64,000 nucleotides of DNA from Nitrospinales bacterium. Its GTDB lineage: Bacteria > Nitrospinota > Nitrospinia > Nitrospinales > VA-1. Within the stretch, counting starts at the first letter, position 1; every line of letters begins with the position of its first letter. Below are positions 18,993-36,564 of this stretch, piece after piece. Made by a program: the position numbers and the translations under genes. Below the pieces are notes generated by a model. The model saw only the letters and a list, made by a program, of their open reading frames with translations, had not been told where the DNA came from and made no database searches. The DNA lies in NCBI GenBank assembly GCA_965263085.1, contig OZ253582.1, positions 349,848 to 413,847 on the forward strand. Direction: 5' to 3'.

Positions 18993-19178
18993 ATAAATGG
19001 TAGGTATTAAACCACCCCGAAACAAAAACATACCATATTTAATCGCAAAAAAAACGACACTGAATGAACCCCTATGACTGCTCATATGGAATCTCTTATT
19101 GATACTGCACTGAAGGAAGACGTGCAAAGTGGTGACATCACCACCATGAATATTATCCCAAGGGACAATTCTGCGAGG
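18993..19178 (+). pseudogene. displaced nadC promoter/5' fragment (left copy of the island-flanking direct repeat; coding part 19074-19178)
   Basis: MTAHMESLIDTALKEDVQSGDITTMNIIPRDNSAR aligns with the nadC N-terminus at 36441 (20 of 36 residues identical by my count). It contains the 22-mer CAAAGTGGTGACATCACCACCA (19125-19146), identical to 36510-36531. The outer repeat ends are approximate. Confidence 0.75.
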
Positions 19179-19186
19179 GGGGGGGG
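19177..19186 (+). repeat. G10 homopolymer at the nadC-fragment/island junction
   Basis: Counted directly: ctgcga-GGGGGGGGGG-taag. It lies 34 nt upstream of ATG 19221 and is followed by (TACAA)x3 at 19206-19220. Confidence 0.9.
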
Positions 19187-19220
19187 TAAGGCCCATGCCC
19201 TACCATACAATACAATACAA

Positions 19221-22200
19221 ATGAAACCCTGCACGCCACCAGCAAAGAAGCCGCGCCTTTTCCGGGTTGCCTACCTGTCCCTGATCTGGCTCGCCGCAAC
19301 CATCTGCGCCCTGTTGTTCACCGCCTACCCGGCTAACGCCAGCCTGATGCTCAATACATCGGGCGACCAGAATTACACGCTTGACATGGCGATCCCCAAT
19401 CTGCAACTGCCGGAAGCGACCGGCGGCACGGGGACGCTGGACTACACTCTGACCGGGCCAGACGGCGGCGCCCTGCCGGAGGGTCTGATCTTTACCCCCG
19501 GCACACGCACGCTGTCCGGCACGCCGAGCCAGCCCGGTGCCACCACCCTGACCTACACGGTCACCGATACCAGCGATGCCGGAACGGTTACGACCTCCAC
19601 CTCCACGACCTTCACGGTCAGGGTCCACATGCTCAATACACCGGACAGCCAGGCTTACGTGTTGAACAGGGCGATCACTCTGCAACTGCCGGAAGCGGCC
19701 GGCGGCAAGGGGCCGCTGGTGTACACTCTGACCAGGCGAGGCGGCGGCGCCCTGCCGGGAGGTCTGGAGTTTGACGCCGACACACGCATACTGTCCGGCA
19801 CGCCGAGCATGAACGGTTACTTCCCCCTGACCTACACGGTCACCGATGCCAACGGTGTCAGCACGAGTGTGAACTTCCTGCTCATAGTCAGGGGCAGCGT
19901 GAAGCTGACCGCACCGCTCAACCAGAATTACACGCAGGGCATGGCGATCCCCGATCTGCAACTGCCAGCAGCGACCGACGGCACGGGGACGCGGGTGTAC
20001 ACTCTGACCGGCGTGCCGGCGGGTCTGACCTTTGACGCTGGCAAACGCAAGCTGTCCGGCACGCCGAGCGCGCTCGGTTCCACTCTCCTGACCTACACGG
20101 TCACCGATGCCAACGGTGACGAGACTAGTGTGACCTTCACGGTCACGGTCAACGCCGACCTGGCGCTCAATGCACGAGGCAACCGGAGTTACGCGCAGGG
20201 CAGGACGATCAGAGATCTGCAACTACCGGAAGCGATCGGCGGCACGGGGACGCTGGTGTACACTCTGACCGGGCCAGACGGCCTAGACGACCTGCCGGCG
20301 GGTCTGACCTTTGACGCTGGCACACGCACGCTGTCCGGCACGCCGAGCACGGTCGGTGTCACCACCCTGACCTACACGGTCACCGATACCAACAATGCCA
20401 GCACGACTGCGACCTTCACGGTCAACGTCATATTTAGTAGGGGAGGAAACCTGGGGATAGTGGAGACGGATGGCCTGGATTACGCGCAGGGCAGGCCGTT
20501 CACTCGGCAACTGTCGGAAGCGACCGGCGGCATAGGGACGCTGACCTACACTCTGACCGGGCTAGACGGCGGCCCCCTGCCGGCGGGTCTGACCTTTGAC
20601 CCCGACACACGCACGCTGTCCGGCACGCCGAGCATGACCGGTAACTTCGTCATGACCTACACGGTCACCGATACCAACGATACCATCCAGGTGTTCGGAA
20701 GGGGCATCCGTATCTCCGTCTTCTCCAACCTGAGGCTCAATACATCGGGCAACCGGGGCTATACCCAGAACACTTTGATCACCGATCTGCAACTGCCGGA
20801 AGCGACCGGCGGCTTTGGGACGCTGAGGTACACTCTGACCGGGCCAGACGGCCTGCCGATGGGTCTGACCTTTGACGCTGGCACACGCACACTGTCCGGC
20901 ACGCCGAGCACGGTCGGTGTCACCACCCTGACCTACACGGTCACCGATATCAACGATGCCTTCACGGCTATGTTCTCGAGGCGCTTCACGGTCACGGTCA
21001 ACGCCGGCCTGGCGCTCAATGCATCGGGCGACCAGAATTACACGCTTGATACGGCAATCACCGATCTGCAACTGCCGGTAGCGACCGGCGGCACGGGGAC
21101 GTTGACCTACACTCTGACCGCGCCAGGCGGCGGCCTGCCGGCGGGTCTGACCTTTGACCCCGGCACACGCACGCTGTCCGGCACGCCGGACACGGCTGGT
21201 ACCACCATCTTGACCTACATGGCCACCGATACCAGCGGTGTCGGAACGGTTACGTTCTCCACGACCTTCACGGTCAAGGTCAACGCCAGCTTGGCGCTCA
21301 GTGCATCGGGCGACCAGAATTACACGCAGGGCACAGCGATCAGCGTGCAACTGCCAGCAGCGACCGGCGGCACGATGCCGCTGACCTACACTCTGACCGG
21401 CCTGCCGGCGGGTCTGACCTTTACCCCCGGCACACGCACGCTGTCCGGCACGCCGAGCACGGCTGCTACCACCACCTTGACCTACAGGGTCACAGATGAC
21501 AACGGTGCCAGCACGAGTGTGGACTTCACGGTCACGGTCAGCGACGGCCTGACGTTCGACTCTGAACCGGCCAACCAGAATTACACGCAGGGCACGGCGA
21601 TCCCCGATCTGCAACTGCCAGTAGCGACCGGCGGCACGGAGCCACTGAGGTACACTCTGACCAGTGTGCCGGGTCTGACCTTTACCCCCGGCACACGCAT
21701 ACTGTCCGGCACGCCGGACACGGCTGCTACCACCACCCTGACCTACAGGGTCACCGATACCAACGGTGCCAGCACGAGTGTGGACTTCATGGTCACGGTC
21801 AACGCCGGCTTGGCGCTGACCGCGCCGGTCGACCAGAATTACACGCAGGGCACGGCGATCACCGATCTGCCTCTGCCGGAAGCGAGCGGAGGCACGGAGC
21901 CGCTGACCTACACTCTGACAGGGCCAGGCGACAGCGCCCTGCAGGGAGGTCTGGACTTTACCCCCGGCACACGCACGCTGTCCGGCACGCCGAGCACGCC
22001 TGCTACCACCACCCTGACCTACGAGGTCACCGATACCAACGGTGCCAGCGACAGTGTGGACTTCACCGTCATAGTCAACGCCAAACTGGCACTCGATACA
22101 CCGGACGACCAGAATTACACGCAGGACAAGGCGATCACCAATCTGGAACTGCCAGCAGCGACCGGCGGCACCGGGACGCTGACCTACACTCTGACCGGCC

Positions 22201-25200
22201 TGCCGGGAGGTCTGACCTTTAGCGGACGCACGCTGTCCGGCACGCCTGACACGGATGGTGACTTCACCCTGACCTACGAGGTCAGCGATGCCAACGGTGC
22301 CAGCACGAGTGTGGACTTCACCGTCATAGTCAACGCCAAACTGGCACTCGATACACCGGACGACCAGAATTACACGCAGGGCAGGGCGATCACCGATCTG
22401 ACTCTGCCGGCAGCGAGCGGCGGCACCGGGACGCTGACCTACACTCTGACCGGGCTAGGCGGCCTGCCGGGAGGTCTGAACTTTACCGCCGGCACACGCA
22501 CGCTATCCGGCACGCCAAGCACGCCTGGTACTACCACCTTGACCTACGAGGTCACCGATACCAACAGTGCCAGCACGACTGCGACCTTCATGGTCAAGGT
22601 CAACGCCGAACTGGGGCTCAATGCATCGGGCAACCAGAATTACACGCAGGACAGGAGGATCCCCGGTGGTCTGTTTCTGCCGGAAGCAACCGGCGGCACG
22701 GCGCCACTGACGTACACTCTGACCGCGCCAGGCGGCCTGCCGGCGGGTCTGGAATTTAACGTCAACGCACGCCTACTGTTCGGCCCGCCGAGCACGCCTG
22801 CTACCACCACCCTGACCTACACGGTCACCGATGCCAACGGTGCCAGCAAGAGTGTGGACTTCATGGTCACGGTCAACCCCGGCTTGGCGCCGCTGACCGC
22901 GCCGGCCGACCAGAATTACACGCAGGGCAGGGCGATCACCGATCTGACTCTGCCGGCAGCGACCGGCGGCACGGAGCCATTGACGTACACTCTGACCGGC
23001 CTGCCGCCGGGTCTGACCTTTGACACACGCACGCTGTCCGGCACGCCGGACACGCCTGGTACCTTTGACCTGACCTACGAGGTCACCGATGCCAACGGTG
23101 CCAGCACGGATGTGACCTTCATGGTCACGGTCAACGAGGGCTTGGCTCTGACCGCATCGAGCAACCAGAATTACACGCTTAACACGGCGATCCCCGCTCT
23201 GACTCTGCCGGCAGCGGACGGCGGCACCGGGACGCTGACCTACACTCTGACCGGGCCAGGCGGCCTGCCGGGAGGTCTGGACTTTAGCGGACGCACGCTG
23301 TCCGGCACACCGGACACGGCTGGTGACTTCACCCTGACCTACGAGGTCATGGATGCCAACGGTGCCAGCACGACTGCGACCTTCACGGTTAGTGTCAGCG
23401 ACGGCTTGGCACTCAGTGCACGAGGCGACCAGAATTACACGCAGGACAAGGCGATCACCGATCTGGAACTGCCGATAGCGAGCGGCGGCACGGCGCCACT
23501 GACCTACACTCTGACCAGTGTGCCGGGTCTGGACTTTAACGCCAACACACGCATACTGTCCGGCACACCGAGCACGGCTGATACCTTCGACCTGACCTAC
23601 GAGGTCACCGATGCCAACGGTGCCAGCACGACTGCGACCTTCACGGTCATAGTCAGCGACGGCTTGGCACTCAGTGCACGAGGCGACCAGAATTACACGC
23701 TTGATACGGCGATCACCGATCTGGAACTGCCGGAAGCGAGCGGCGGCACCGGGACGCTGACCTACACTCTGACCGGGCCAGGCGACAGCGCCCTGCCGGG
23801 AGGTCTGACCTTTAGCGGACGCATACTGTCCGGCACACCGGACACGGCTGGTGACTTCACCCTGACCTACACGGTCACCGATACCAACAATGCCACCACG
23901 ACTGCGACCTTCACGGTCATAGTCAGCGATGGCTTGGCACTCAGTGCACGAGGCGACCAGAATTACACGCAGGACAAGGCGATCACCGATCTGGAACTGC
24001 CGATAGCGAGCGGCGGCACGGCGCCACTGACCTACACTCTGACCAGTGTGCCGGGTCTGGACTTTAACGCCAACACACGCACGCTGTCCGGCACACCGAG
24101 CACGGCTGATACCTTCGACCTGACCTACGAGGTCACCGATGCCAACGGTGCCAGCACGACTGCGACCTTCACGGTCATAGTCAGCGACGGCTTGGCACTC
24201 AGTGCACGAGGCGACCAGAATTACACGCTTAACACGGCGATCACCGGTCTGGAACTGCCGGAAGCGGACGGCGGCACCGGGACGCTGACCTACACTCTGA
24301 CCGGGCCAGGCGGCCTGCCGGGAGGTCTGGACTTTAGCGGACGCACGCTGTCCGGCACACCGGACACGGCTGGTGACTTCACCCTGACCTACACGGTCAC
24401 CGATACCAACGATGCCACCACGACTGCGACCTTCACGGTCATAGTCAGCGACGGCTTGGCACTCAGTGCACGAGGCGACCAGAATTACACGCAGGACAAG
24501 GCGATCACCGATCTGGAACTGCCGATAGCGAGCGGCGGCACGGCGCCACTGACCTACACTCTGACCAGTGTGCCGGGTCTGGACTTTAACGCCAACACAC
24601 GCACGCTGTCCGGCACACCGAGCACGGCTGATACCTTCGACCTGACCTACGAGGTCACCGATGCCAACGGTGCCAGCACGACTGCGACCTTCACGGTCAT
24701 AGTCAGCGACGGCTTGGCGCTGACCGCATCGGGCAACCAGAATTACACGCTTGATACGGAGATCACCGCTCTGGAACTGCCGGTAGCGACCGGCGGCACC
24801 GGGACGCGGACCTACACTCTGACCGGGCCAAGCGGCCTGCCGGGAGGTCTGGACTTTGACGTCGACACACGCATACTGTCCGGCACGCCGACCGAGGTCG
24901 GTACCACCACCCTGACCTACGAGGTCATGGATGAAAACGGTGCCAGCACGAGTGTGGACTTCACGGTCACGGTCAACGCCGGCTTGACGCTGACCGCATC
25001 GGGCAACCAGAATTACACGCAGGGCACGGCGATCACCGATCTGCCACTGCCAGCAGCGACCGGCGGCACGATGCCGCTGACCTACACTCTGACCAGTGTG
25101 CCGGGTCTGGACTTTAACGCCGGCACACGCACGCTGTCCGGCACGCCGAGCACCGCCACTAGTACCACCACCCTGACCTACGAGGTCACCGATGCCAACA

Positions 25201-26327
25201 ATGCCAGCACGAGTGTGGACTTCACGGTCACGGTCAACGCCGGCTTGACGCTGACCGCATCGGGCAACCAGAATTACACGCTTGATACGGCGATCACCGG
25301 TCTGGAACTGCCGGTAGCGACCGGCGGCACGATGCCGCTGACCTACACTCTGACCGGGCCAAGCGGCGGCAACCTACCGGCGGGTCTGACCTTTAGCGGA
25401 CGCACGCTGTCCGGCACGCCGACCGAGGTCGGTACCACCACCCTGACCTACGAGGTCATGGATGAAAACGGTGCCAGCACGAGTGTGGACTTCACGGTCA
25501 CGGTCAACGCCGGCTTGGCACTCAGTGCACGAGGCGACCAGAATTACACAGAGGACACGGCGATCCCCGATCTGGAACTGCCGGAAGCGAGCGGCGGCAC
25601 GGAGCCACTGGTGTACACTCTGACAGGGCCAGGCGACAGCGCCCTGCCGGGAGGTCTGACCTTTAGCGGACGCACGCTGTCCGGCACACCGACCGAGGTC
25701 GGTACCACCACCCTGACCTACGAGGTCATGGATGAAAACGGTGCCAGCACGAGTGTGGACTTCACGGTCACGGTCAACGCCGGCTTGGCACTCAGTGCAC
25801 GAGGCGACCAGAATTACACAGAGGACACGGCGATCCCCGATCTGGAACTGCCGGAAGCGAGCGGCGGCACGGAGCCACTGGTGTACACTCTGACAGGGCC
25901 AGGCGACAGCGCCCTGCCGGGAGGTCTGACCTTTAGCGGACGCACGCTGTCCGGCACACCGGACACGGCTGCTACCACCATCTTGACCTACACGGTCATG
26001 GATGACAACGGTGCCAGCACGAGTGTGGACTTCACGGTCACGGTCAACGAGGGCTTGGCGCTGACCGCATCGGGCGACCAGAATTACACGCAGGGCACGG
26101 CGATCACCAATCTGGAACTGCCAGCAGCGACCGGCGGCACGGCGCTGCTGGTGTACACTCTGACCAGTGTGCCGGGTCTGGACTTTGACCCCGGCACACG
26201 CACGCTGTCCGGCACGCCGAGCACGCCTGCTACCACCACCCTGACCTACATGGTCAGCGATGCCAACGGTGCCAGCACGACTGCGACCTTCACCGTCATA
26301 GTCAGCGACGGCTTAGCGGCGCGCTGA
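19221..26327 (+). CDS. giant autotransporter adhesin, N-terminal segment (signal peptide + 26 He_PIG/cadherin-like Ig modules); frame lost at 26.3 kb
   Basis: The track ORF is 19074-26327. I place the start at ATG 19221 because MKPCTPPAKKPRLFRVAYLSLIWLAATICALLFTAYPANA/S is a canonical Sec signal peptide (basic n-region, hydrophobic core, AxA site). The modules carry the signature LP.A.GG.G.L.Y.L..LP.GL.F...R.LSGTP.....LTY.V.D.NG.S...F.V.V. The ORF ends at a TGA created by 5 extra nt in a linker (gcttAGCGGCgcgcTGAccg versus canonical gcttggcgctgaccg) and has no barrel of its own. Confidence 0.8.
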   Translation: MKPCTPPAKKPRLFRVAYLSLIWLAATICALLFTAYPANASLMLNTSGDQNYTLDMAIPNLQLPEATGGTGTLDYTLTGPDGGALPEGLIFTPGTRTLSGTPSQPGATTLTYTVTDTSDAGTVTTSTSTTFTVRVHMLNTPDSQAYVLNRAITLQLPEAAGGKGPLVYTLTRRGGGALPGGLEFDADTRILSGTPSMNGYFPLTYTVTDANGVSTSVNFLLIVRGSVKLTAPLNQNYTQGMAIPDLQLPAATDGTGTRVYTLTGVPAGLTFDAGKRKLSGTPSALGSTLLTYTVTDANGDETSVTFTVTVNADLALNARGNRSYAQGRTIRDLQLPEAIGGTGTLVYTLTGPDGLDDLPAGLTFDAGTRTLSGTPSTVGVTTLTYTVTDTNNASTTATFTVNVIFSRGGNLGIVETDGLDYAQGRPFTRQLSEATGGIGTLTYTLTGLDGGPLPAGLTFDPDTRTLSGTPSMTGNFVMTYTVTDTNDTIQVFGRGIRISVFSNLRLNTSGNRGYTQNTLITDLQLPEATGGFGTLRYTLTGPDGLPMGLTFDAGTRTLSGTPSTVGVTTLTYTVTDINDAFTAMFSRRFTVTVNAGLALNASGDQNYTLDTAITDLQLPVATGGTGTLTYTLTAPGGGLPAGLTFDPGTRTLSGTPDTAGTTILTYMATDTSGVGTVTFSTTFTVKVNASLALSASGDQNYTQGTAISVQLPAATGGTMPLTYTLTGLPAGLTFTPGTRTLSGTPSTAATTTLTYRVTDDNGASTSVDFTVTVSDGLTFDSEPANQNYTQGTAIPDLQLPVATGGTEPLRYTLTSVPGLTFTPGTRILSGTPDTAATTTLTYRVTDTNGASTSVDFMVTVNAGLALTAPVDQNYTQGTAITDLPLPEASGGTEPLTYTLTGPGDSALQGGLDFTPGTRTLSGTPSTPATTTLTYEVTDTNGASDSVDFTVIVNAKLALDTPDDQNYTQDKAITNLELPAATGGTGTLTYTLTGLPGGLTFSGRTLSGTPDTDGDFTLTYEVSDANGASTSVDFTVIVNAKLALDTPDDQNYTQGRAITDLTLPAASGGTGTLTYTLTGLGGLPGGLNFTAGTRTLSGTPSTPGTTTLTYEVTDTNSASTTATFMVKVNAELGLNASGNQNYTQDRRIPGGLFLPEATGGTAPLTYTLTAPGGLPAGLEFNVNARLLFGPPSTPATTTLTYTVTDANGASKSVDFMVTVNPGLAPLTAPADQNYTQGRAITDLTLPAATGGTEPLTYTLTGLPPGLTFDTRTLSGTPDTPGTFDLTYEVTDANGASTDVTFMVTVNEGLALTASSNQNYTLNTAIPALTLPAADGGTGTLTYTLTGPGGLPGGLDFSGRTLSGTPDTAGDFTLTYEVMDANGASTTATFTVSVSDGLALSARGDQNYTQDKAITDLELPIASGGTAPLTYTLTSVPGLDFNANTRILSGTPSTADTFDLTYEVTDANGASTTATFTVIVSDGLALSARGDQNYTLDTAITDLELPEASGGTGTLTYTLTGPGDSALPGGLTFSGRILSGTPDTAGDFTLTYTVTDTNNATTTATFTVIVSDGLALSARGDQNYTQDKAITDLELPIASGGTAPLTYTLTSVPGLDFNANTRTLSGTPSTADTFDLTYEVTDANGASTTATFTVIVSDGLALSARGDQNYTLNTAITGLELPEADGGTGTLTYTLTGPGGLPGGLDFSGRTLSGTPDTAGDFTLTYTVTDTNDATTTATFTVIVSDGLALSARGDQNYTQDKAITDLELPIASGGTAPLTYTLTSVPGLDFNANTRTLSGTPSTADTFDLTYEVTDANGASTTATFTVIVSDGLALTASGNQNYTLDTEITALELPVATGGTGTRTYTLTGPSGLPGGLDFDVDTRILSGTPTEVGTTTLTYEVMDENGASTSVDFTVTVNAGLTLTASGNQNYTQGTAITDLPLPAATGGTMPLTYTLTSVPGLDFNAGTRTLSGTPSTATSTTTLTYEVTDANNASTSVDFTVTVNAGLTLTASGNQNYTLDTAITGLELPVATGGTMPLTYTLTGPSGGNLPAGLTFSGRTLSGTPTEVGTTTLTYEVMDENGASTSVDFTVTVNAGLALSARGDQNYTEDTAIPDLELPEASGGTEPLVYTLTGPGDSALPGGLTFSGRTLSGTPTEVGTTTLTYEVMDENGASTSVDFTVTVNAGLALSARGDQNYTEDTAIPDLELPEASGGTEPLVYTLTGPGDSALPGGLTFSGRTLSGTPDTAATTILTYTVMDDNGASTSVDFTVTVNEGLALTASGDQNYTQGTAITNLELPAATGGTALLVYTLTSVPGLDFDPGTRTLSGTPSTPATTTLTYMVSDANGASTTATFTVIVSDGLAAR

Positions 26328-27477
26328 CCGCATCGGGCAACCAGAATTACACGCTTGATACGGCGATCACCGATCTGGAACTGCCGGAAGCGAGCGGCGG
26401 CACGGAGCCACTGACCTACACTCTGACCAGTGTGCCGGGTCTGACCTTTACCCCCGGCACACGCACGCTGTCCGGCACGCCGCCAGAGTCATAGTCCGAC
26501 GGCTTGGCGCACGCAACCAGAATTACAGATCACCACGGACCTACACTCTGCCAGCACCCTCACGGTCACGGTACACGGTCATGGATGACAACGGTGCCAG
26601 CACGAGTGTGGACTTCACGGTCACGGTCAACGACGGCTTGGCACTCAGTGCACGAGGCGACCAGAATTACACGCAGGACAAGGCGATCACCGATCTGCAA
26701 CTGCCGATAGCGAGCGGCGACCGACCAGCACGGGCTTTACCCCCGGCACACGCCACTGACCTACACTCTGACCAGTGTGCCGGGTCTGGACTTTGACCCC
26801 GGCACACGCACGCTGTCCGGCACGCCGACCGAGGTCGGTACCACCACCCTGACCTACGAGGTCATGGATGAAAACGGTGCCAGCACGAGTGTGGACTTCA
26901 CGGTCACGGTCAACGCCGGCTTGGCACTCAGTGCACGAGGCGACCAGAATTACACAGAGGACACGGCGATCCCCGATCTGGAACTGCCGGAAGCGAGCGG
27001 CGGCACGGAGCCACTGACCTACACTCTGACCAGTGTGCCGGGTCTGGACTTTGACGCCGACACACGCATACTGTCCGGCACACCGAGCACGCCTGCTACC
27101 ACCACCCTGACCTACATGGTCAGCGATGCCAACGGTGCCAGCACGACTGCGACCTTCACCGTCATAGTCAGCGACGGCTTGGCGCTGACCGCATCGGGCA
27201 ACCAGAATTACACAGATCACCGCTCTGGACAAGGCGATCACCGACTCTGCCAACTGCCGGAAGCGACGCACGCTGTCCGGCACGCCGAGTACCACCACCC
27301 TGACCTACAGGTCATGGATGAAAACGGTGCCACACGAGTGACTTCACGGTCACGGTCAACGCCGGCGCACTCAGTGCACGAGGCGACCAGAATTACACAG
27401 AGGACACGGCGATCCCCGATCTGGAACTGCCGGAAGCGAGCGGCGGCACGGAGCCACTGACCTACACTCTGACCAGT
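26311..27477 (+). other. scrambled-repeat zone interrupting the adhesin frame (assembly collapse or genuine disruption)
   Basis: Four patches (26314-26323, 26471-26580, 26716-26760, 27215-27375) are shredded or misplaced module pieces. They are separated by intact canonical modules, and ORF 26777-27460 reads through two of those. Confidence 0.8.
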
Positions 27478-30400
27478 GTGCCGGGTCTGGACTTTGACGC
27501 CGACACACGCATACTGTCCGGCACACCGAGCACGCCTGCTACCACCACCCTGACCTACATGGTCAGCGATGCCAACGGTGCCAGCACGACTGCGACCTTC
27601 ACCGTCATAGTCAGCGACGGCTTGGCGCTGACCGCATCGGGCAACCAGAATTACACGCAGGACAAGGCGATCCCCGATCTGCAACTGCCGGAAGCGAGCG
27701 GCGGCACGGAGCCACTGACCTACACTCTGACCAGTGTGCCGGGTCTGGACTTTGACGCCGACACACGCATACTGTCCGGCACACCGAGCACGCCTGCTAC
27801 CACCACCCTGACCTACATGGTCAGCGATGCCAACGGTGCCAGCACGACTGCGACCTTCACCGTCATAGTCAGCGACGGCTTGGCGCTGACCGCATCGGGC
27901 AACCAGAATTACACAGAGGACAAGGCGATCCCCGATCTGCAACTGCCGATAGCGACCGGAGGCACGGGGACGCTGACCTACACTCTGACCGGGCCAAGCG
28001 GCGGCAACCTACCGGCGGGTCTGACCTTTAGCGGACGCACGCTGTCCGGCACGCCGACCGAGGTCGGTACCACCACCCTGACCTACGAGGTCATGGATGA
28101 AAACGGTGCCAGCACGAGTGTGGACTTCACGGTCACGGTCAACGCCGGCTTGGCACTCAGTGCACGAGGCGACCAGAATTACACAGAGGACACGGCGATC
28201 CCCGATCTGGAACTGCCGGAAGCGAGCGGCGGCACGGAGCCACTGACCTACACTCTGACCAGTGTGCCGGGTCTGGACTTTGACGCCGACACACGCATAC
28301 TGTCCGGCACACCGAGCACGCCTGCTACCACCACCCTGACCTACATGGTCAGCGATGCCAACGGTGCCAGCACGACTGCGACCTTCACCGTCATAGTCAG
28401 CGACGGCTTGGCGCTGACCGCATCGGGCAACCAGAATTACACGCAGGACAAGGCGATCCCCGATCTGCAACTGCCGATAGCGACCGGAGGCACGGGGACG
28501 CTGACCTACACTCTGACCAGTGTGCCGGGTCTGGACTTTGACCCCGGCACACGCACGCTGTCCGGCACGCCGAGCACGCCTGCTACCACCACCCTGACCT
28601 ACATGGTCAGCGATGCCAACGGTGCCAGCACGACTGCGACCTTCACCGTCATAGTCAGCGACGGCTTGGCGCTGACCGCATCGGGCAACCAGAATTACAC
28701 GCAGGACAAGGCGATCCCCGATCTGGAACTGCCGGTAGCGACCGGCGGCACGGAGCCACTGACCTACACTCTGACCAGTGTGCCGGGTCTGGACTTTAAC
28801 CCCGGCACACGCATACTGTCCGGCACACCGAGCACGGCTGATACCACTACCCTGACCTACACGGTCACCGATACCAACGGTGCCAGCGAGAATGCGACCT
28901 TCATGGTCACGGTCAACGCCAGCTTAGCGCTGACCGCGCCGGTCGACCAGAATTACACGCTTGATACGGAGATCACCGGTCTGACTCTGCCGGAAGCGGA
29001 CGGCGGCACGGCGCCGCTGACCTACACTCTGACCAGCGTGCCGGGTCTGAACTTTAACGCCAACACACGCACGCTGTCCGGCACGCCGAGCACGGCTGAT
29101 ACCACTACCCTGACCTACACGGTCACCGATACCAACGGTGCCAGCGAGAATGCGACCTTCATGGTCACGGTCAACGCCAGCTTAGCGCTGACCGCGCCGG
29201 TCGACCAGAATTACACGCTTGATACGGAGATCACCGGTCTGACTCTGCCGGAAGCGGACGGCGGCACGGCGCCGCTGACCTACACTCTGACCAGCGTGCC
29301 GGGTCTGAACTTTAACGCCAACACACGCACGCTGTCCGGCACGCCGAGCACGGCTGATACCACTACCCTGACCTACACGGTCACCGATACCAACGGGGCC
29401 AGCGAGAATGCGACCTTCACGGTCACGGTCAACGAGGGCTTGGCGCTGACCGCATCGGGCAACCAGAATTACACAGAGGGCAGGGTGATCACCGCTCTGC
29501 AACTGCCGGTAGCGACCGGCGGCACGGGAACGCTGGTGTACACTCTGACAGGGCCAAGCGGCGGCAACCTGCCGGCGGGTCTGACCTTTACCCCTGGCAC
29601 ACGCACGCTGTCCGGCACGCCGAGCACGGCTGATACCACTACCCTGACCTACACGGTCACCGATACCAACGGTGCCAGCGAGAATGCGACCTTCATGGTC
29701 ACGGTCAACGCCAGCTTAGCGCTGACCGCGCCGGTCGACCAGAATTACACGCTTGATACGGAGATCACCGGTCTGACTCTGCCGGAAGCGGACGGCGGCA
29801 CCGGGACGCTGACCTACACTCTGACCAGCGTGCCGGGTCTGACCTTTACCCCCGGCACACGCACGCTGTCCGGCACGCCGAGCACGGCTGATACCACTAC
29901 CCTGACCTACACGGTCACCGATACCAACGGTGCCAGCGAGAATGCGACCTTCATGGTCACGGTCAACGCCAGCTTAGCGCTGACCGCGCCGGTCGACCAG
30001 AATTACACGCTTGATACGGAGATCACCGGTCTGACTCTGCCGGAAGCGGACGGCGGCACGGCGCCGCTGACCTACACTCTGACCAGCGTGCCGGGTCTGA
30101 ACTTTAACGCCAACACACGCACGCTGTCCGGCACGCCGAGCACGGCTGATACCACTACCCTGACCTACACGGTCACCGATACCAACGGTGCCAGCGAGAA
30201 TGCGACCTTCATGGTCACGGTCAACGCCAGCTTAGCGCTGACCGCGCCGGTCGACCAGAATTACACGCTTGATACGGAGATCACCGGTCTGACTCTGCCG
30301 GAAGCGGACGGCGGCACGGCGCCGCTGACCTACACTCTGACCAGCGTGCCGGGTCTGAACTTTAACGCCAACACACGCACGCTGTCCGGCACGCCGAGCA

Positions 30401-33400
30401 CGGCTGATACCACTACCCTGACCTACACGGTCACCGATACCAACGGGGCCAGCGAGAATGCGACCTTCACGGTCACGGTCAACGAGGGCTTGGCGCTGAC
30501 CGCATCGGGCAACCAGAATTACACAGAGGGCAGGGTGATCACCGCTCTGCAACTGCCGGTAGCGACCGGCGGCACGGGAACGCTGGTGTACACTCTGACA
30601 GGGCCAAGCGGCGGCAACCTGCCGGCGGGTCTGACCTTTACCCCTGGCACACGCACGCTGTCCGGCACGCCGAGCACGGCTGATACCACTACCCTGACCT
30701 ACACGGTCACCGATACCAACGGTGCCAGCGAGAATGCGACCTTCATGGTCACGGTCAACGCCAGCTTAGCGCTGACCGCGCCGGTCGACCAGAATTACAC
30801 AGAGGGCAGGGTGATCACCGCTCTGGAACTGCCGGTAGCGACCGGCGGCACCGGGACGCTGACCTACACTCTGACCAGCGTGCCGGGTCTGAACTTTAAC
30901 GCCAACACACGCACGCTGTCCGGCACGCCGAGCACGGCTGATACCACTACCCTGACCTACACGGTCACCGATACCAACGGTGCCAGCGAGAATGCGACCT
31001 TCATGGTCACGGTCAACGCCAGCTTAGCGCTGACCGCGCCGGTCGACCAGAATTACACAGAGGGCAGGGTGATCACCGCTCTGGAACTGCCGGTAGCGAC
31101 CGGCGGCACCGGGACGCTGACCTACACTCTGACCAGCGTGCCGGGTCTGACCTTTACCCCCGGCACACGCACGCTGTCCGGCACGCCGAGCACGGCTGAT
31201 ACCACTACCCTGACCTACACGGTCACCGATACCAACGGTGCCAGCGAGAATGCGACCTTCATGGTCACGGTCAACGCCAGCTTAGCGCTGACCGCGCCGG
31301 TCGACCAGAATTACACGCTTGATACGGAGATCACCGGTCTGACTCTGCCGGAAGCGGACGGCGGCACGGCGCCGCTGACCTACACTCTGACCAGCGTGCC
31401 GGGTCTGAACTTTAACGCCAACACACGCACGCTGTCCGGCACGCCGAGCACGGCTGATACCACTACCCTGACCTACACGGTCACCGATACCAACGGGGCC
31501 AGCGAGAATGCGACCTTCACGGTCACGGTCAACGAGGGCTTGGCGCTGACCGCATCGGGCAACCAGAATTACACAGAGGGCAGGGTGATCACCGCTCTGC
31601 AACTGCCGGTAGCGACCGGCGGCACCGGGACGCTGACCTACACTCTGACCAGCGTGCCGGGTCTGACCTTTACCCCCGGCACACGCACGCTGTCCGGCAC
31701 GCCGAGCACGGCTGATACCACTACCCTGACCTACACGGTCACCGATACCAACGGTGCCAGCGAGAATGCGACCTTCATGGTCACGGTCAACGCCAGCTTA
31801 GCGCTGACCGCGCCGGTCGACCAGAATTACACGCTTGATACGGAGATCACCGGTCTGACTCTGCCGGAAGCGGACGGCGGCACGGCGCCGCTGACCTACA
31901 CTCTGACCAGCGTGCCGGGTCTGAACTTTAACGCCAACACACGCACGCTGTCCGGCACGCCGAGCACGGCTGATACCACTACCCTGACCTACACGGTCAC
32001 CGATACCAACGGGGCCAGCGAGAATGCGACCTTCACGGTCACGGTCAACGAGGGCTTGGCGCTGACCGCATCGGGCAACCAGAATTACACAGAGGGCAGG
32101 GTGATCACCGCTCTGGAACTGCCGGTAGCGACCGGCGGCACCGGGACGCTGACCTACACTCTGACCAGCGTGCCGGGTCTGACCTTTAACGCCAACACAC
32201 GCACGCTGTCCGGCACGCCGAGCACGGCTGATACCACTACCCTGACCTACACGGTCACCGATACCAACGGTGCCAGCGAGAATGCGACCTTCATGGTCAC
32301 GGTCAACGAGGGCTTGGCGCTGACCGCGCCGGTCGACCAGAATTACACGCTTGATACGGAGATCACCGGTCTGACTCTGCCGGAAGCGGACGGCGGCACG
32401 GCGCCGCTGACCTACACTCTGACCAGCGTGCCGGGTCTGAACTTTAACGCCAACACACGCACGCTGTCCGGCACGCCGAGCACGGCTGATACCACTACCC
32501 TGACCTACACGGTCACCGATACCAACGGGGCCAGCGAGAATGCGACCTTCACGGTCACGGTCAACGAGGGCTTGGCGCTGACCGCATCGGGCAACCAGAA
32601 TTACACAGAGGGCAGGGTGATCACCGCTCTGGAACTGCCGGTAGCGACCGGCGGCACCGGGACGCTGACCTACACTCTGACCAGCGTGCCGGGTCTGACC
32701 TTTAACGCCAACACACGCACGCTGTCCGGCACGCCGAGCACGGCTGATACCACTACCCTGACCTACGAGGTCATGGATGACAACGGGGCCAGCACGAGTG
32801 TGGACTTCACGGTCACGGTCAACGAGGGCTTGGCGCTGACCGCATCGGGCAACCAGAATTACACGCTTGATACGGAGATCGACGATCTGCAACTGCCGGA
32901 AGCGAGCGGCGGCACGGGAACGCTGGTGTACACTCTGACAGGGCCAAGCGGCGGCAACCTGCCGGCGGGTCTGACCTTTGACACACGCACACTGTCCGGC
33001 ACGCCGGACACGGCTGGTACCACCAACCTGACCTACAGGGTCACCGATGCCAACGATGCCACCACGACTGCGACCTTCACCGTCATAGTCAGCGACGGCT
33101 TGGCGCTGACCGCATCCGGCAACCAGAATTACACGCTTGGCACGGCGATCACCAATCTGGAACTGCCAGCAGCGACCGGCGGCACGGCGCCACTGACGTA
33201 CACTCTGACCAGTGTGCCGGGTCTGGACTTTGACCCCGGCACACGCACGCTGTCCGGCACGCCGAGCACGCCTGCTACCACCACCCTGACCTACATGGTC
33301 AGCGATGCCAACGGTGCCAGCACGACTGCGACCTTCACCGTCATAGTCAGCGACGGCTTGGCGCTGACCGCATCGGGCAACCAGAATTACACGCTTAATA

Positions 33401-36339
33401 CGGCGATCACCAATCTGGAACTGCCGGAAGCGAGCGGCGGCACGGGAACGCTGGTGTACACTCTGACAGGGCCAAGCGGCGGCAACCTGCCGGCGGGTCT
33501 GACCTTTGACACACGCACACTGTCCGGCACGCCGGACACGGCTGGTACCACCAACCTGACCTACAGGGTCACCGATGCCAACGATGCCACCACGACTGCG
33601 ACCTTCACCGTCATAGTCAGCGACGGCTTGGCGCTGACCGCATCCGGCAACCAGAATTACACGCTTGATACGGCGATCAGCAATCTGCAACTGCCAGCAG
33701 CGACCGGTGGCACGGGGACGTTGACCTACACTCTGACCAATGTGCCGGGTCTGGACTTTAACGTCGACACACGCATACTGTCCGGCACGCCGGACACGGC
33801 TGGTACCACCACCCTGACCTACGAGGTCACCGATACCAACGGTGCCAGCACGACTGCGACCTTCACCGTCATAGTCAGCGACGGCTTGGCGCTGACCGCG
33901 CCGGCCAACCAGACTTACACAGAGGACAGGGCGATCAACAATCTGCAACTGCTGGCAGCGACCGGTGGCACGGGGACGTTGACCTACACTCTGACCAATG
34001 TGCCGGGTCTGGACTTTAACGTCGACACACGCATACTGTCCGGCACGCCGGACACGGCTGGTACCACCACCCTGACCTACGAGGTCATGGATGAAAACGG
34101 TGCCAGCACGAATGCGACCTTCACCGTCATAGTCAACGACAGCTTGGCGCTGACCGCGCCGGTCGACCAGAATTACACGCTTGATACGGCGATCACCGAT
34201 CTGCAACTGCCGATAGCGACTGGCGGCACCGGGACGCTGACCTACACTCTGACCAATGTGCCGGGTCTGACCTTTACCCCTGGCACACGCACGCTGTCCG
34301 GCACGCCGGACACGGCTGGTACCACCACCCTGACCTACAGGGTCACCGATACCAACGGTGCCAGCACGAGTGTGACCTTCACGGTTAGTGTCAGCGAGGG
34401 CTTGGCGCTGACCGCATCGGGCAACCAGAATTACACAGAGGGCAGGGCGATCACCGATCTGCAACTGCTGGCAGCGACCGGTGGCACCGGGACGTTGACG
34501 TACACTCTGACCAGTGTGCCGGGTCTGGACTTTAACGCCAACACACGCATACTGTCCGGCACGCCAAGCACGGCTGGTACCACCACCCTGACCTACAGGG
34601 TCACCGATGACAACGGTGCCAGCACGAGTGTGGACTTCATGGTCACGGTCAACGCCGGCTTGACGCTCGATACACCGGCCAACCAGAATTACACGCTTGA
34701 CACGGAGATCCCCGATCTGCCACTGCCGGAAGCGACCGGCGGCACGGGGACGTTGACGTACACTCTGACCGGGCCAAGCGGCCTGCAGGGAGGTCTGACC
34801 GTGTCAAACGACGACACCCTGCCGGGAGGTCTGACCTTTACCGCCGGCACACACACGCTGTCCGGCACGCCGGACACGGCTGGTACCACCACCTTGACCT
34901 ACACGGTCACCGGTGCCAACGGTGCCAGCACGAATGTGACCTTCACGGTCACGGTATCCGACAATACGGACGAGGGGTTTGCCGACCTCAATACCTTGAT
35001 CCTGCCGGAAATGGCGCGGGCCATAGCCGACCAGAAGGTGAGCGCGATAACACAACGTATTGCTAAGACCATGAGCGGTGGCAGTACCCGGTCCGTCACT
35101 ATTGCCGGGCAGCCCACATTGGCCGAGGCGGCATCTGCCCACGGCCAGGCCATCGCCGATGGCACGCTGAGTCTTAAGGATCTGCTGAACAACTCTGACT
35201 TTGTCCTGCCGCTGAATGATGCCAGCGGTACGGACAGCGGAGCCTTATGGGGCGGGGGCAGCTACCGCAGCTTCGAAGGTTCCGGCGGGGAAGATGTGGA
35301 CTTTGACGGAGACCTGTTCAGCGCCTATCTGGGACTGGACACTCAACCGCGTGACGACCTGCTGATCGGCCTGACGCTATCCTGGAGCCAGAGCAATCTT
35401 GGCTACCAGAGGAGTGAACTCGAACGCAAGGGGGATTATAAGCTGGACCTCACCAGTATTAATCCTTATGTAGGCTGGGAAGTGCTGGCCGGAAAACTGG
35501 ATCTGTGGGCCACTGCGGGCTACGGCTGGGGTGACCTTAAGATCACTGATGACGGGTCGGACCAGGCATCGAGCTATGTTGAAGCGTGGGACGTGGCTGT
35601 GGGCGGTAATATCCAGTTGTCGCAGGCGACGAGCCCGGTCCTGTTCCGGCTCAAGAGTTCAGCCTTGCTGACCGAGATGGATGTGGAGGGCAGCGATGAT
35701 ATTGCGGGGCTGGGAGTGGATGCCAGCCTGTTGCGCATGGTCCTGGAAGGAACGGATAAACATCTGCTGGCCAACGGGGCTTATGTGGAGCCGAGCCTGG
35801 AGGTCGGAGTGCGGTATAACGGCGGCGACGGCGAGACTGGTTTCGAGGCCGAGTTGGGTGCCGGTTTCCGCTACATCAATCCGATCGCCGGTCTGACCCT
35901 GGAAGGCAGGGCACGCACCCTGGTGGGACGGGACAATTATAATGCATGGGGCCTTTCCGGCCTGATTCTTCTGGAGCAGGGCAGCAACGGGCGGGGGCTG
36001 TCGTTCAGCCTGAGTCCCGGTTACGGTAATACCAACAGCGGTACGGAAAAAATATGGAAGGATGGCCTGCGTGACGAGATCAGCGGTGACCAGGGTTACA
36101 GCCTGCGGCTGGACACCCGGATTGGTTACGGGCTGACCGCTCCCGGTGTGCGGGGACTGCTGACTCCTTACAGCGAAATGACCTTCGGCGGCTCTGACAG
36201 GAGTTACCGCCTGGGGATAAGATGGGAACTTGATTCGTTGTTTGACCTGAACCTGACCGGTGAGCGTATAGAGAGCAACAGCAGCACCGCTGACCGCGCC
36301 ATTGACCGCGCCATGCTGAAAGGCAATATCCGGTTTTAA
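27478..36339 (+). CDS. giant autotransporter adhesin, C-terminal segment (29 modules + linker + beta-barrel translocator)
   Basis: 2953-aa track ORF. Its GTG start falls inside a module (..SVPGLDFDAD..) and there is no signal peptide. After module 29 come a helical linker (ADLNTLILPEMARAIADQKVSAITQRIAK) and a barrel-like domain (LWGGGSYRSFEG, DLFSAYLGLD, alternating-hydrophobic strands) ending ...LKGNIRF. Confidence 0.85.
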   Translation: MPGLDFDADTRILSGTPSTPATTTLTYMVSDANGASTTATFTVIVSDGLALTASGNQNYTQDKAIPDLQLPEASGGTEPLTYTLTSVPGLDFDADTRILSGTPSTPATTTLTYMVSDANGASTTATFTVIVSDGLALTASGNQNYTEDKAIPDLQLPIATGGTGTLTYTLTGPSGGNLPAGLTFSGRTLSGTPTEVGTTTLTYEVMDENGASTSVDFTVTVNAGLALSARGDQNYTEDTAIPDLELPEASGGTEPLTYTLTSVPGLDFDADTRILSGTPSTPATTTLTYMVSDANGASTTATFTVIVSDGLALTASGNQNYTQDKAIPDLQLPIATGGTGTLTYTLTSVPGLDFDPGTRTLSGTPSTPATTTLTYMVSDANGASTTATFTVIVSDGLALTASGNQNYTQDKAIPDLELPVATGGTEPLTYTLTSVPGLDFNPGTRILSGTPSTADTTTLTYTVTDTNGASENATFMVTVNASLALTAPVDQNYTLDTEITGLTLPEADGGTAPLTYTLTSVPGLNFNANTRTLSGTPSTADTTTLTYTVTDTNGASENATFMVTVNASLALTAPVDQNYTLDTEITGLTLPEADGGTAPLTYTLTSVPGLNFNANTRTLSGTPSTADTTTLTYTVTDTNGASENATFTVTVNEGLALTASGNQNYTEGRVITALQLPVATGGTGTLVYTLTGPSGGNLPAGLTFTPGTRTLSGTPSTADTTTLTYTVTDTNGASENATFMVTVNASLALTAPVDQNYTLDTEITGLTLPEADGGTGTLTYTLTSVPGLTFTPGTRTLSGTPSTADTTTLTYTVTDTNGASENATFMVTVNASLALTAPVDQNYTLDTEITGLTLPEADGGTAPLTYTLTSVPGLNFNANTRTLSGTPSTADTTTLTYTVTDTNGASENATFMVTVNASLALTAPVDQNYTLDTEITGLTLPEADGGTAPLTYTLTSVPGLNFNANTRTLSGTPSTADTTTLTYTVTDTNGASENATFTVTVNEGLALTASGNQNYTEGRVITALQLPVATGGTGTLVYTLTGPSGGNLPAGLTFTPGTRTLSGTPSTADTTTLTYTVTDTNGASENATFMVTVNASLALTAPVDQNYTEGRVITALELPVATGGTGTLTYTLTSVPGLNFNANTRTLSGTPSTADTTTLTYTVTDTNGASENATFMVTVNASLALTAPVDQNYTEGRVITALELPVATGGTGTLTYTLTSVPGLTFTPGTRTLSGTPSTADTTTLTYTVTDTNGASENATFMVTVNASLALTAPVDQNYTLDTEITGLTLPEADGGTAPLTYTLTSVPGLNFNANTRTLSGTPSTADTTTLTYTVTDTNGASENATFTVTVNEGLALTASGNQNYTEGRVITALQLPVATGGTGTLTYTLTSVPGLTFTPGTRTLSGTPSTADTTTLTYTVTDTNGASENATFMVTVNASLALTAPVDQNYTLDTEITGLTLPEADGGTAPLTYTLTSVPGLNFNANTRTLSGTPSTADTTTLTYTVTDTNGASENATFTVTVNEGLALTASGNQNYTEGRVITALELPVATGGTGTLTYTLTSVPGLTFNANTRTLSGTPSTADTTTLTYTVTDTNGASENATFMVTVNEGLALTAPVDQNYTLDTEITGLTLPEADGGTAPLTYTLTSVPGLNFNANTRTLSGTPSTADTTTLTYTVTDTNGASENATFTVTVNEGLALTASGNQNYTEGRVITALELPVATGGTGTLTYTLTSVPGLTFNANTRTLSGTPSTADTTTLTYEVMDDNGASTSVDFTVTVNEGLALTASGNQNYTLDTEIDDLQLPEASGGTGTLVYTLTGPSGGNLPAGLTFDTRTLSGTPDTAGTTNLTYRVTDANDATTTATFTVIVSDGLALTASGNQNYTLGTAITNLELPAATGGTAPLTYTLTSVPGLDFDPGTRTLSGTPSTPATTTLTYMVSDANGASTTATFTVIVSDGLALTASGNQNYTLNTAITNLELPEASGGTGTLVYTLTGPSGGNLPAGLTFDTRTLSGTPDTAGTTNLTYRVTDANDATTTATFTVIVSDGLALTASGNQNYTLDTAISNLQLPAATGGTGTLTYTLTNVPGLDFNVDTRILSGTPDTAGTTTLTYEVTDTNGASTTATFTVIVSDGLALTAPANQTYTEDRAINNLQLLAATGGTGTLTYTLTNVPGLDFNVDTRILSGTPDTAGTTTLTYEVMDENGASTNATFTVIVNDSLALTAPVDQNYTLDTAITDLQLPIATGGTGTLTYTLTNVPGLTFTPGTRTLSGTPDTAGTTTLTYRVTDTNGASTSVTFTVSVSEGLALTASGNQNYTEGRAITDLQLLAATGGTGTLTYTLTSVPGLDFNANTRILSGTPSTAGTTTLTYRVTDDNGASTSVDFMVTVNAGLTLDTPANQNYTLDTEIPDLPLPEATGGTGTLTYTLTGPSGLQGGLTVSNDDTLPGGLTFTAGTHTLSGTPDTAGTTTLTYTVTGANGASTNVTFTVTVSDNTDEGFADLNTLILPEMARAIADQKVSAITQRIAKTMSGGSTRSVTIAGQPTLAEAASAHGQAIADGTLSLKDLLNNSDFVLPLNDASGTDSGALWGGGSYRSFEGSGGEDVDFDGDLFSAYLGLDTQPRDDLLIGLTLSWSQSNLGYQRSELERKGDYKLDLTSINPYVGWEVLAGKLDLWATAGYGWGDLKITDDGSDQASSYVEAWDVAVGGNIQLSQATSPVLFRLKSSALLTEMDVEGSDDIAGLGVDASLLRMVLEGTDKHLLANGAYVEPSLEVGVRYNGGDGETGFEAELGAGFRYINPIAGLTLEGRARTLVGRDNYNAWGLSGLILLEQGSNGRGLSFSLSPGYGNTNSGTEKIWKDGLRDEISGDQGYSLRLDTRIGYGLTAPGVRGLLTPYSEMTFGGSDRSYRLGIRWELDSLFDLNLTGERIESNSSTADRAIDRAMLKGNIRF
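28657..32820 (+). repeat. block of 16 near-identical modules organised as 1050-nt (4-module) and ~516-nt (2-module) higher-order repeats
   Basis: Identical 106-aa antisense ORFs at 29182, 30232 and 31282 show three identical 321-nt stretches at exact 1050-nt spacing. Module boundaries were mapped by hand (258+258+276+258 nt). Confidence 0.9.
34957..36339 (+). other. autotransporter linker plus C-terminal beta-barrel domain of the adhesin
   Basis: This non-repetitive ~460-aa tail starts SDNTDEGF. It is Gly/aromatic-rich with amphipathic strands and a terminal Phe, as is typical for outer-membrane beta-barrels. Confidence 0.75.
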
Positions 36340-36393: not shown

Positions 36394-36564
36394 TGATAAA
36401 ATGGTTAAAGTTTTAACACCATTTTGACCGCGAAAACAAGATGCCGAATAAACCTCTCATGGCTGTAGATATTGAGTCCCTCATCATCACCACCCTGGAA
36501 GAAGACATCCAAAGTGGTGACATCACCACCAGGAGCATTATACCTGAGGGACAACTCCGCGAGG
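36394..36564 (+). repeat. right copy of the island-flanking direct repeat (nadC promoter/5' end)
   Basis: About 75-80% identical by eye to 18993-19178. The perfect 22-mer core lies at 36510-36531. The outer repeat ends are approximate. Confidence 0.7.
36398..36425. promoter_or_regulatory. 28-nt AT-rich imperfect palindrome just upstream of nadC (operator or weak terminator candidate)
   Basis: AAAATGGT-taaagttttaac-ACCATTTT, with an inner TTAAA/TTTAA pairing. It lies 15 nt before ATG 36441 and about 60 nt after the adhesin stop. Confidence 0.3.

Follow-up and report, generated by a model that had tools for sequence, protein, structure and literature searches.

The 64-kb window analysed here, a stretch of DNA from a Nitrospinales bacterium (contig OZ253582.1), contains a giant locus at 19221-36339 on the forward strand, all positions being numbered on this window. 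The locus likely encodes a giant surface fibre of the autotransporter type (type V-like), made by a Nitrospinales bacterium whose probable habitat is a marine sponge. Its domain order was a signal peptide, an array of immunoglobulin (Ig)-like modules, a helix and a barrel related to that of autotransporters. The translocator is probably a member of a distinct clade that has no name yet, with a predicted barrel of about 18 strands, multiple copies in sponge symbionts and interchangeable Ig-like arrays. The features of the locus, with the basis of each assignment, were as follows.

19031-19181 (+): diverged second copy (about 78%) of the promoter and 5' end of nadC (nadC'), from a local alignment with 36417-36567; the ATG of this copy (19074) shares the frame of the giant open reading frame (ORF)
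19177-19186 (+): G10 homopolymer, seen in the sequence 35 nt 5' of the ATG at 19221, within the nadC' extension
19221-19340 (+): Sec-type signal peptide of 40 aa, predicted cleavage after ANA (translation, inspection)
19356-26324 (+): He_PIG/cadherin-like modules 1-26, intact, frame 2 (module hidden Markov model (HMM), Pfam PF05345, identity matrix)
26325-27375 (+): about 4 module-equivalents in a scrambled state, the frame changing at least 6 times (module HMM, alignments to paralogs)
27376-34971 (+): He_PIG/cadherin-like modules 31-59, intact, frame 0 (module HMM, identity matrix, AlphaFold2 (AF2) model of 27634-28161, Foldseek)
34966-35238 (+): conserved linker, a predicted 34-residue alpha-helix plus short helices/strands (AF2, conservation in 44 relatives)
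35239-36339 (+): beta-barrel domain of 366 aa plus stop, about 18 predicted strands, ending ...NIRF (PF03797, DSSP on the AF2 model, Foldseek, amphipathicity)
36441-37295 (+): intact nadC, conserved as the gene to the right of the autotransporter slot (NCBIfam TIGR00078, E=2e-94; synteny with the sister locus L025)

C-terminal linker and beta-domain

The C-terminal 457 aa consisted of a predicted helix followed by a 366-aa beta-rich domain, and the protein ended ...LKGNIRF, in agreement with an earlier reading made from the sequence alone (the sequence-only reading), which had described a helical linker and a barrel-like C-terminal domain ending in Phe. A terminal aromatic residue is the beta-signal of type Va autotransporters; the consensus of 44 relatives ended RF and a few of the listed giants ended in Y or L. 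The 457 aa alone matched the Pfam Autotransporter family PF03797 with 34.4 bits against a gathering score of 26 (E=2.6e-8), over profile positions 1-124 only, and the possibility, raised by the sequence-only reading, that the domain would match no autotransporter model was thereby set aside. The match was lost when a longer 549-aa query was run against Pfam, and the only other Pfam family found with the 457-aa query at E<=10 was the generic OMP_b-brl (PF13505). PF03797 was found in 35 of 44 diverse relatives (best E=9e-16). Judged by these profile matches, the barrel is related to the autotransporter beta-domain, and the protein thus has the C-terminal PF03797-homologous domain of type Va. NCBIfam, including its curated autotransporter-barrel models, returned no family at E<=10 for the 457-aa or a 367-aa query, and nothing meaningful was found when the single domain sequence was compared with the sequences of the Protein Data Bank (PDB).

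A model of the C-terminal domain was built with AF2 from 30 homologues, a shallow alignment. It reached a predicted local distance difference test score (pLDDT) of 80 and a predicted template modelling (TM) score of 0.73, with pLDDT >90 across most of residues 110-310. The linker formed a 34-residue helix at residues 3-36 (pLDDT 81-91), with short elements at 43-82; the helix was conserved in the 44 relatives and corresponds to the alpha-helical linker of type Va. DSSP assigned 18 beta-strands across residues 92-456, joined by short turns of 2-8 residues, with the low-confidence segment 357-376 as the sole longer loop. The top Foldseek matches of the domain were the autotransporter beta-domains of BrkA (3qq2), EstA, AIDA-I, EspP and NalP.

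The size of the barrel was assessed by comparison of the profile with the model. In 9 of 10 diverse relatives, positions 1 to about 210 of the 255 in PF03797 were colinear with residues ~89-295, that is, with predicted strands 1-10. Beyond strand 10, about 160 residues (eight predicted strands) remained here, against about 45 positions in the classical profile, and strands 9-18 showed a strong hydrophobic/polar alternation in the family alignment. Because profile coverage and strand amphipathicity agree with the DSSP count, the barrel appears to be larger than 12 strands, and it is predicted to be about 18-stranded and not the classical 12 of type Va.

It is unlikely that the domain is instead an ordinary 12-strand type Va barrel in which the extra ~110 residues make up long loops or an added sheet and too many strands are predicted by AF2. 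Such a barrel would account for the above-threshold PF03797 match and for the 12-strand autotransporter barrels at the top of the Foldseek list, and the strand count was taken from DSSP on a shallow-alignment model. It is, however, difficult to fit to 18 regular strands with 2-8-residue turns and one longer loop, to a profile whose positions 1-210 use up just residues ~89-295, and to the alternation seen in strands 9-18. The likeness to BrkA was also limited (BrkA-normalised TM 0.56, root-mean-square deviation 6.6 A), 22-strand TonB-dependent barrels reached a similar query-normalised TM, and the NCBIfam autotransporter models stayed silent.

Signal peptide, repeat passenger and reading frame

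Translated from the ATG at 19221, the N-terminus reads MKPCTPPAKKPRLFRVAYLSLIWLAATICALLFTAYPANA and continues with SLML after the predicted cleavage site. On inspection, a basic n-region, a hydrophobic core and the cleavage motif ANA before S were recognised, which bears out the Sec signal peptide proposed for 19221-19340 and gives the protein the Sec signal of type Va. The repeat array starts five residues past the signal peptide, so no distinct N-terminal head domain is present.

Tandem Repeats Finder reported a period of 258 with 52-58 copies (score 11679). A module HMM, built from the intact 3' ORF and run on the three forward frames, gave a total of about 59 modules of 86-92 aa (26 intact in frame 2, about 4 damaged and 29 intact in frame 0), so that the 59-60 tandem modules counted by the sequence-only reading were recovered as 55 intact and about 4 scrambled ones. 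The true number is uncertain because the repeat region may be misassembled. Two 500-aa samples of the array matched Pfam He_PIG (PF05345) with E=4e-50 and 1e-48 (168.7 and 164.1 bits against a cutoff of 24), and weaker matches to Big_9, HYR and Cadherin_5 overlapped these. The AF2 model of two modules (27634-28161), for which other module pairs of the array served as the alignment, had a pLDDT of 88 and showed two beta-sandwiches with seven strands per module. Its best PDB matches in Foldseek were the cadherin-like modules of SraP (4m00/4m03, E=2e-11, 30% identity), followed by EC1-2 of E- and P-cadherin. The Ig/cadherin-like fold of the He_PIG modules, recognised earlier from the sequence pattern, was thus confirmed by the predicted structure, and no non-Ig fold emerged. 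In their arrangement as tandem beta-sandwich stalk modules they resemble the cadherin-like modules of SraP and the extracellular cadherin (EC) repeats; unlike the protein described here, SraP is a Gram-positive, LPXTG-anchored, serine-rich-repeat adhesin with just two such modules.

The intact passenger (4,858 residues) contained 0 Cys, 0 Trp and 23% Thr and was net acidic. Absence of Cys is expected of an autotransporter passenger that crosses the outer membrane unfolded. According to the identity matrix, the N-terminal modules, which are the cell-distal ones of the array, were the most diverged (73-86% DNA identity to the nearest paralog). Many modules in 27376-34971 were 100% identical in DNA and were arranged in higher-order repeats of 2 and 4 modules. 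DNA-identical central modules in higher-order units indicate that the array grew through recent tandem amplification. Long ORFs were also observed antisense to the array, at 31798-34464 (-) (888 aa), 19200-20222 (-) and 20562-21614 (-); they were rejected as genes and regarded as stop-free shadow frames of a GC-rich repeat.

The size of the gene had originally been given on the assumption of a continuous frame, which did not hold. In the ORF listing, 19221-36339 was split into three pieces, 19074-26327 (frame 2), 26777-27460 (frame 1) and 27478-36339 (frame 0), and the length of 19221-36336 is not divisible by 3. Passenger and barrel in one uninterrupted polypeptide were therefore found in relatives, such as P0063 (5,738 aa), and not in this assembly. 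All lesions were confined to 26325-27375, where at least 6 frame changes and >15 indels lie within about 1 kb of a 17-kb gene. Relative to their best intact paralogues, the damaged modules carried a ~60-nt insertion of repeat-like debris and a ~13-nt net insertion, and one module had shrunk to 185 nt through >10 separate small deletions. A perfect module (26933-27190) lay inside the scrambled stretch, and the damaged modules alternated with others that matched paralogues at 100%; numbers 29, 31 and 34 were mutually identical. The remaining ~16 kb contained no stop codon, and the flanking housekeeping genes were intact.

The only near-identical contig, L001 (ENA ERZ26695902, 27.9 kb, 7x, from another sample), shared 98% identity in the 3' end. 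It ran through the 5' region, a short array, the 3' end, the 5' 500 bp of nadC, the upstream region again, an array and an inverted array. As a jumbled 7x assembly, it was rejected as an arbiter of array length or frame, and because it is jumbled, the locus can be taken to be prone to misassembly.

We consider it fairly probable that the frameshifts are a consensus artefact that arose from near-identical repeat reads stacked on each other, and more likely so than that they reflect real inactivation, because the pattern of lesions is unlike gradual decay. A genuine pseudogene, with an array in decay since the gene was acquired horizontally and no protein of full length, seems rather unlikely; at most, such a gene would yield a 2,369-aa N-terminal fragment without the barrel, and the piece that carries the barrel lacks a signal peptide. 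The three ORF pieces with their frame changes would be explained directly by a pseudogene, frameshifts also occur in relatives (one in the barrel of L025, and a homolog split in three at L004), related metagenome-assembled genomes (MAGs) are based on PacBio HiFi reads and metaMDBG, in which random indels are rare, and the codon usage of the giant gene is foreign. Decay would, however, have had to place every lesion within 1 kb of a 17-kb gene and leave the other 16 kb stop-free, and to put >15 indels into three modules interleaved with ones that match paralogs at 100%; moreover, misassembly of this locus is evident in L001 and intact giants occur elsewhere.

Relatives, passengers and codon usage

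A phmmer search with the C-terminal domain against 1.84 billion cluster representatives (50%-identity clusters) gave 6,246 matches at E<=1e-3, 5,086 at E<=1e-10 and 1,730 at E<=1e-30. Among the matches listed, the domain was located at the C-terminus and essentially the full 457 residues were covered in 150 of 150, and the proteins were up to 7,796 aa long. By sequence similarity, the C-terminal domain defines an unnamed, uncharacterised family of thousands of public sequences, of which the window gene is one member. P0063 (5,738 aa) was intact and had a signal peptide, about 55 He_PIG modules of the window type and the same barrel, and P0064 (7,149 aa) was also largely He_PIG. Other retrieved members carried Calx-beta-like, PKD-like, cadherin-like and other repeats. 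In the literature searched, nothing relevant was found for He_PIG with autotransporters, He_PIG with sponges or 18-stranded autotransporters. The architecture is thus undescribed in that literature but not unique to the window. Of the possibly new adhesin class suggested by the sequence-only reading, the novelty with respect to the literature stood, in that no paper linking He_PIG to autotransporters came up, whereas the rarity did not, given thousands of public relatives with intact He_PIG giants among them.

The locus scan, which covered one genome per species, revealed >200 family loci, present in multiple copies in MAGs. The hosts were Nitrospinales, Thermohalobaculum sp. (at least 14 copies), Alphaproteobacteria, Ca. 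Poriferihabitaceae, Ca. Spongiihabitans, Ca. Azotimanducaceae, Halieaceae, Arenicellales, Binatia, Nitrospirales and "Deltaproteobacteria", and several of these lineages are sponge symbionts from sponge genome projects. Many MAG loci had uninterrupted ORFs of >3,700 aa that ran beyond the flank examined, and 36-38 modules were counted in the visible part of two Thermohalobaculum loci.

Conservation of the barrel and of the passenger did not run in parallel. The barrel of P0055 was 98.7% identical to that of the window and its array only 65-68%; Thermohalobaculum giants showed 61% identity in the barrel and 60-63% in the array, and Nitrospinales paralogues with 74-76% identical barrels carried no He_PIG array. 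To judge from these identities, passenger and barrel have different histories, and the history of the protein is mosaic. In the case of P0055, either the passenger diverges extremely fast or it was replaced on a conserved translocator. A poly-proline leader, PPPPPPPPRF..ASLQPQPGPPGGRRGVMPAAPRLAALLLGPLM..., was observed to precede or contain the signal peptide in L016 and L024 (Thermohalobaculum), L055 (Ca. Spongiihabitans) and P0063. This leader is common to different bacterial classes, an indication that genes were transferred whole, with their 5' ends included.

A different passenger was also seen at the position of the giant gene itself. The left flank of the locus comprises glyA, hemA, hemC and a gdh-like gene, and the right flank begins with nadC. 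The sister locus L025, from another Nitrospinales MAG (OZ253496.1), was syntenic on both sides with ~85-91% amino-acid identity, which places the window in a Nitrospinales bacterium. Its hemC-nadC interval (L025:7166-11336) contained an autotransporter of ~1,390 aa. This relative combines the same linker and barrel (70% identity) with a signal peptide of its own, PKD-like repeats and a single He_PIG module, and one frameshift lies in its barrel (about 10582-10641). Between the two loci, the slot upstream of nadC is conserved for the translocator and the passenger differs completely.

The GC content was ~63% in the giant locus against ~43% in the rest of the window. GC at third codon positions (GC3) was 0.78 for the gene against 0.47; the array had 0.78-0.79 and the barrel 0.70, and host genes had 0.42-0.53. 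All Nitrospinales paralogues of the family (loci L005-L008) showed the same contrast, with 0.58-0.61 in the gene against 0.46-0.47 in the flank. This contrast led to the rejection of the high GC as a mere effect of codons for a Thr/Gly/Ala/Pro-rich protein. Since its codon usage (GC3) differs from that of host genes, the giant gene is, on this compositional evidence, foreign to its host and forms an island of a single gene. The contrast common to the paralogues suggests either that high-GC co-symbionts donated such genes repeatedly or that the paralogues were homogenised.

Proposed export route and flanking features

On the analogy of type V systems, export would begin with the Sec signal peptide, which would take the Cys-free, Thr-rich, acidic precursor to the periplasm, where BAM, the machinery for beta-barrel assembly, would insert the C-terminal beta-domain in the outer membrane, with the conserved linker helix in the barrel lumen. 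The passenger would then be threaded outward in the C-to-N direction, and sequential extracellular folding of the ~59 modules could give directionality, in analogy to the Ig domains of intimin, whose orientation is reversed. This would give a stalk ~250 nm long, anchored by the barrel, an estimate in which ~4.3 nm per domain is assumed. Its diverged distal modules may mediate adhesion to, or recognition by, the host matrix or cells. This proposal is consistent with the reported enrichment of cadherin-domain attachment proteins in sponge microbiomes and their lateral transfer (PMC10947273). Speculatively, the larger pore and the helix-plus-plug linker might be an adaptation to Ig-array cargo.

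Type Va is among the known systems closest to the protein. Like BrkA, EspP, NalP, AIDA-I and EstA, it combines a Sec signal, a single polypeptide, a helical linker, a C-terminal beta-domain and a terminal aromatic residue, and the PF03797 score above gathering, the best Foldseek matches and the Cys-free passenger point in the same direction. According to a review of type V secretion, Va barrels have 12 strands and their passengers are usually beta-helical, long Ig-like arrays being typical of type Ve (PMC6555100). The protein described here differs from type Va in its 366-aa barrel of ~18 predicted strands (about 250-280 aa and 12 strands in Va), in the extra linker elements past the helix, in a passenger of ~59 cadherin/Ig-like domains in place of a beta-helix, and in the lack of matches to NCBIfam autotransporter models and PDB sequences. 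It was therefore not filed as a classical Va protein, because more than 12 strands are predicted, curated barrel models miss it and the passenger is not beta-helical; as modelled, it is a variant of type V secretion, so far uncharacterised, that has an enlarged barrel and carries Ig-like arrays. The sequence-only reading's classical C-terminal-barrel autotransporter was accordingly supported in topology and in its relation to PF03797 and not supported in being classical.

Long tandem Ig-like arrays on an outer-membrane barrel are shared with type Ve (intimin, invasin), for which export is proposed to be driven by the Ig domains as they fold one after another outside the cell (PMC6555100). In contrast to type Ve, the barrel here is C-terminal and the orientation opposite, and no inverse-autotransporter barrel model (the N-terminal 500 aa included), lectin-like cap or periplasmic LysM was detected with Pfam. 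As for types Vb and Vd, no Omp85/ShlB-type barrel or POTRA domain was found, PF03797 and PF13505 being the only matches of the C-terminal domain at E<=10. The control models called for by the sequence-only reading thus behaved as anticipated, with no intimin/invasin, Omp85/POTRA or RTX (repeats-in-toxin) match to any part examined.

Giant adhesins of the type 1 secretion system (T1SS; LapA/SiiE/MpIBP type) comprise several thousand residues with tens of Ig-like repeats that form a surface stalk; they have no Sec signal and carry C-terminal RTX repeats and a T1SS signal, with adjacent ATP-binding cassette (ABC) and membrane fusion protein (MFP) genes. The protein encoded in the window is comparable in size, in Ig-like repeat number and in the stalk function proposed here. 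It differs from them in its Sec-type N-terminus, in the lack of an RTX match and in its neighbours hemA, hemC, the gdh-like gene and nadC. The protein was accordingly assigned neither to types Ve, Vb or Vd nor to the T1SS adhesins.

It is very unlikely that the barrel serves only as a membrane anchor or porin-like element, with the array exported otherwise (in a T1SS-like or type 2 secretion system-like manner) or left in the periplasm. The idea draws on the fact that very long Ig-like arrays are classically cargo of T1SS or inverse autotransporters (PMC6555100) and that a larger barrel is not a known Va design. It is opposed by the N-terminal Sec signal, the Cys-free passenger and the passenger-helix-barrel order kept in all 150 family members listed. 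Moreover, Pfam revealed no RTX repeats and no inverse-autotransporter or Omp85 match, and the flanks consisted of housekeeping genes (hemA, hemC, gdh-like, nadC) with no ABC, MFP or TolC genes.

Several points weigh against the surface fibre proposed above. The ORF is broken in this assembly, and this copy of the giant gene may be dead. A profile built from 44 sequences found no relative among the PDB sequences, and the Foldseek TM to solved autotransporter barrels was modest (0.34 by query, 0.56 by target). The family is known from sequence and prediction, and it is by analogy that we infer the secretion mechanism, surface location and adhesive function; the association with a sponge is probable, going by the relatives. 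A tentative, more far-reaching reading of the C-terminal domain is that it represents an undescribed type V subclass, in which an enlarged, autotransporter-like barrel of ~18 strands with a helix-plus-plug linker is specialised in the export of multi-thousand-residue Ig/cadherin-like arrays, is horizontally exchanged with swappable passengers among unrelated sponge symbionts and functions in host attachment or recognition.

If the surface fibre reading is true, a barrel related to that of autotransporters and placed at the C-terminus can take on 5-8 thousand residues of Ig-like domains, with a pore that is apparently larger. This bears on two open matters, the way in which passengers get across the outer membrane and the limits on the size and fold of the cargo. 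The cadherin-like "eukaryotic-like proteins" that have been noticed in sponge symbionts for a long time would also gain a concrete molecular candidate in this family, with one shared translocator, multiple copies, many phyla, foreign codon usage and fast-changing passengers. The cross-phylum, multi-copy and foreign-GC pattern fits the eukaryotic-like/cadherin-domain proteins of these symbionts; the sponge-symbiont literature found gives domain counts, and a shared C-terminal translocator or enlarged barrel is not described there. The barrel (about 460 aa) could serve as a compact handle for mining such proteins and for heterologous display.

At the two ends of the gene, scans for sigma-70 promoters and for intrinsic terminators gave nothing above shuffles. 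The nadC' duplicate, ~150 bp long and directly 5' of the giant gene, was absent from L025 and may be a relic of the insertion of the giant gene or a captured promoter. Its in-frame ATG (19074) would put 49 residues ahead of the signal peptide. The G10 tract (19177-19186) was the longest G/C homopolymer in the 64-kb window and is a candidate for a slipped-strand switch that couples or uncouples the nadC' start and the giant ORF, or for an error-prone site. The gdh-like gene (17722-18969, -), located between hemC and the giant gene and absent from the L025 interval, belongs to the Glu/Leu/Phe/Val dehydrogenase family, and its matches to the NCBIfam glutamate dehydrogenase models were weak (E about 1e-42, far below the cutoffs).

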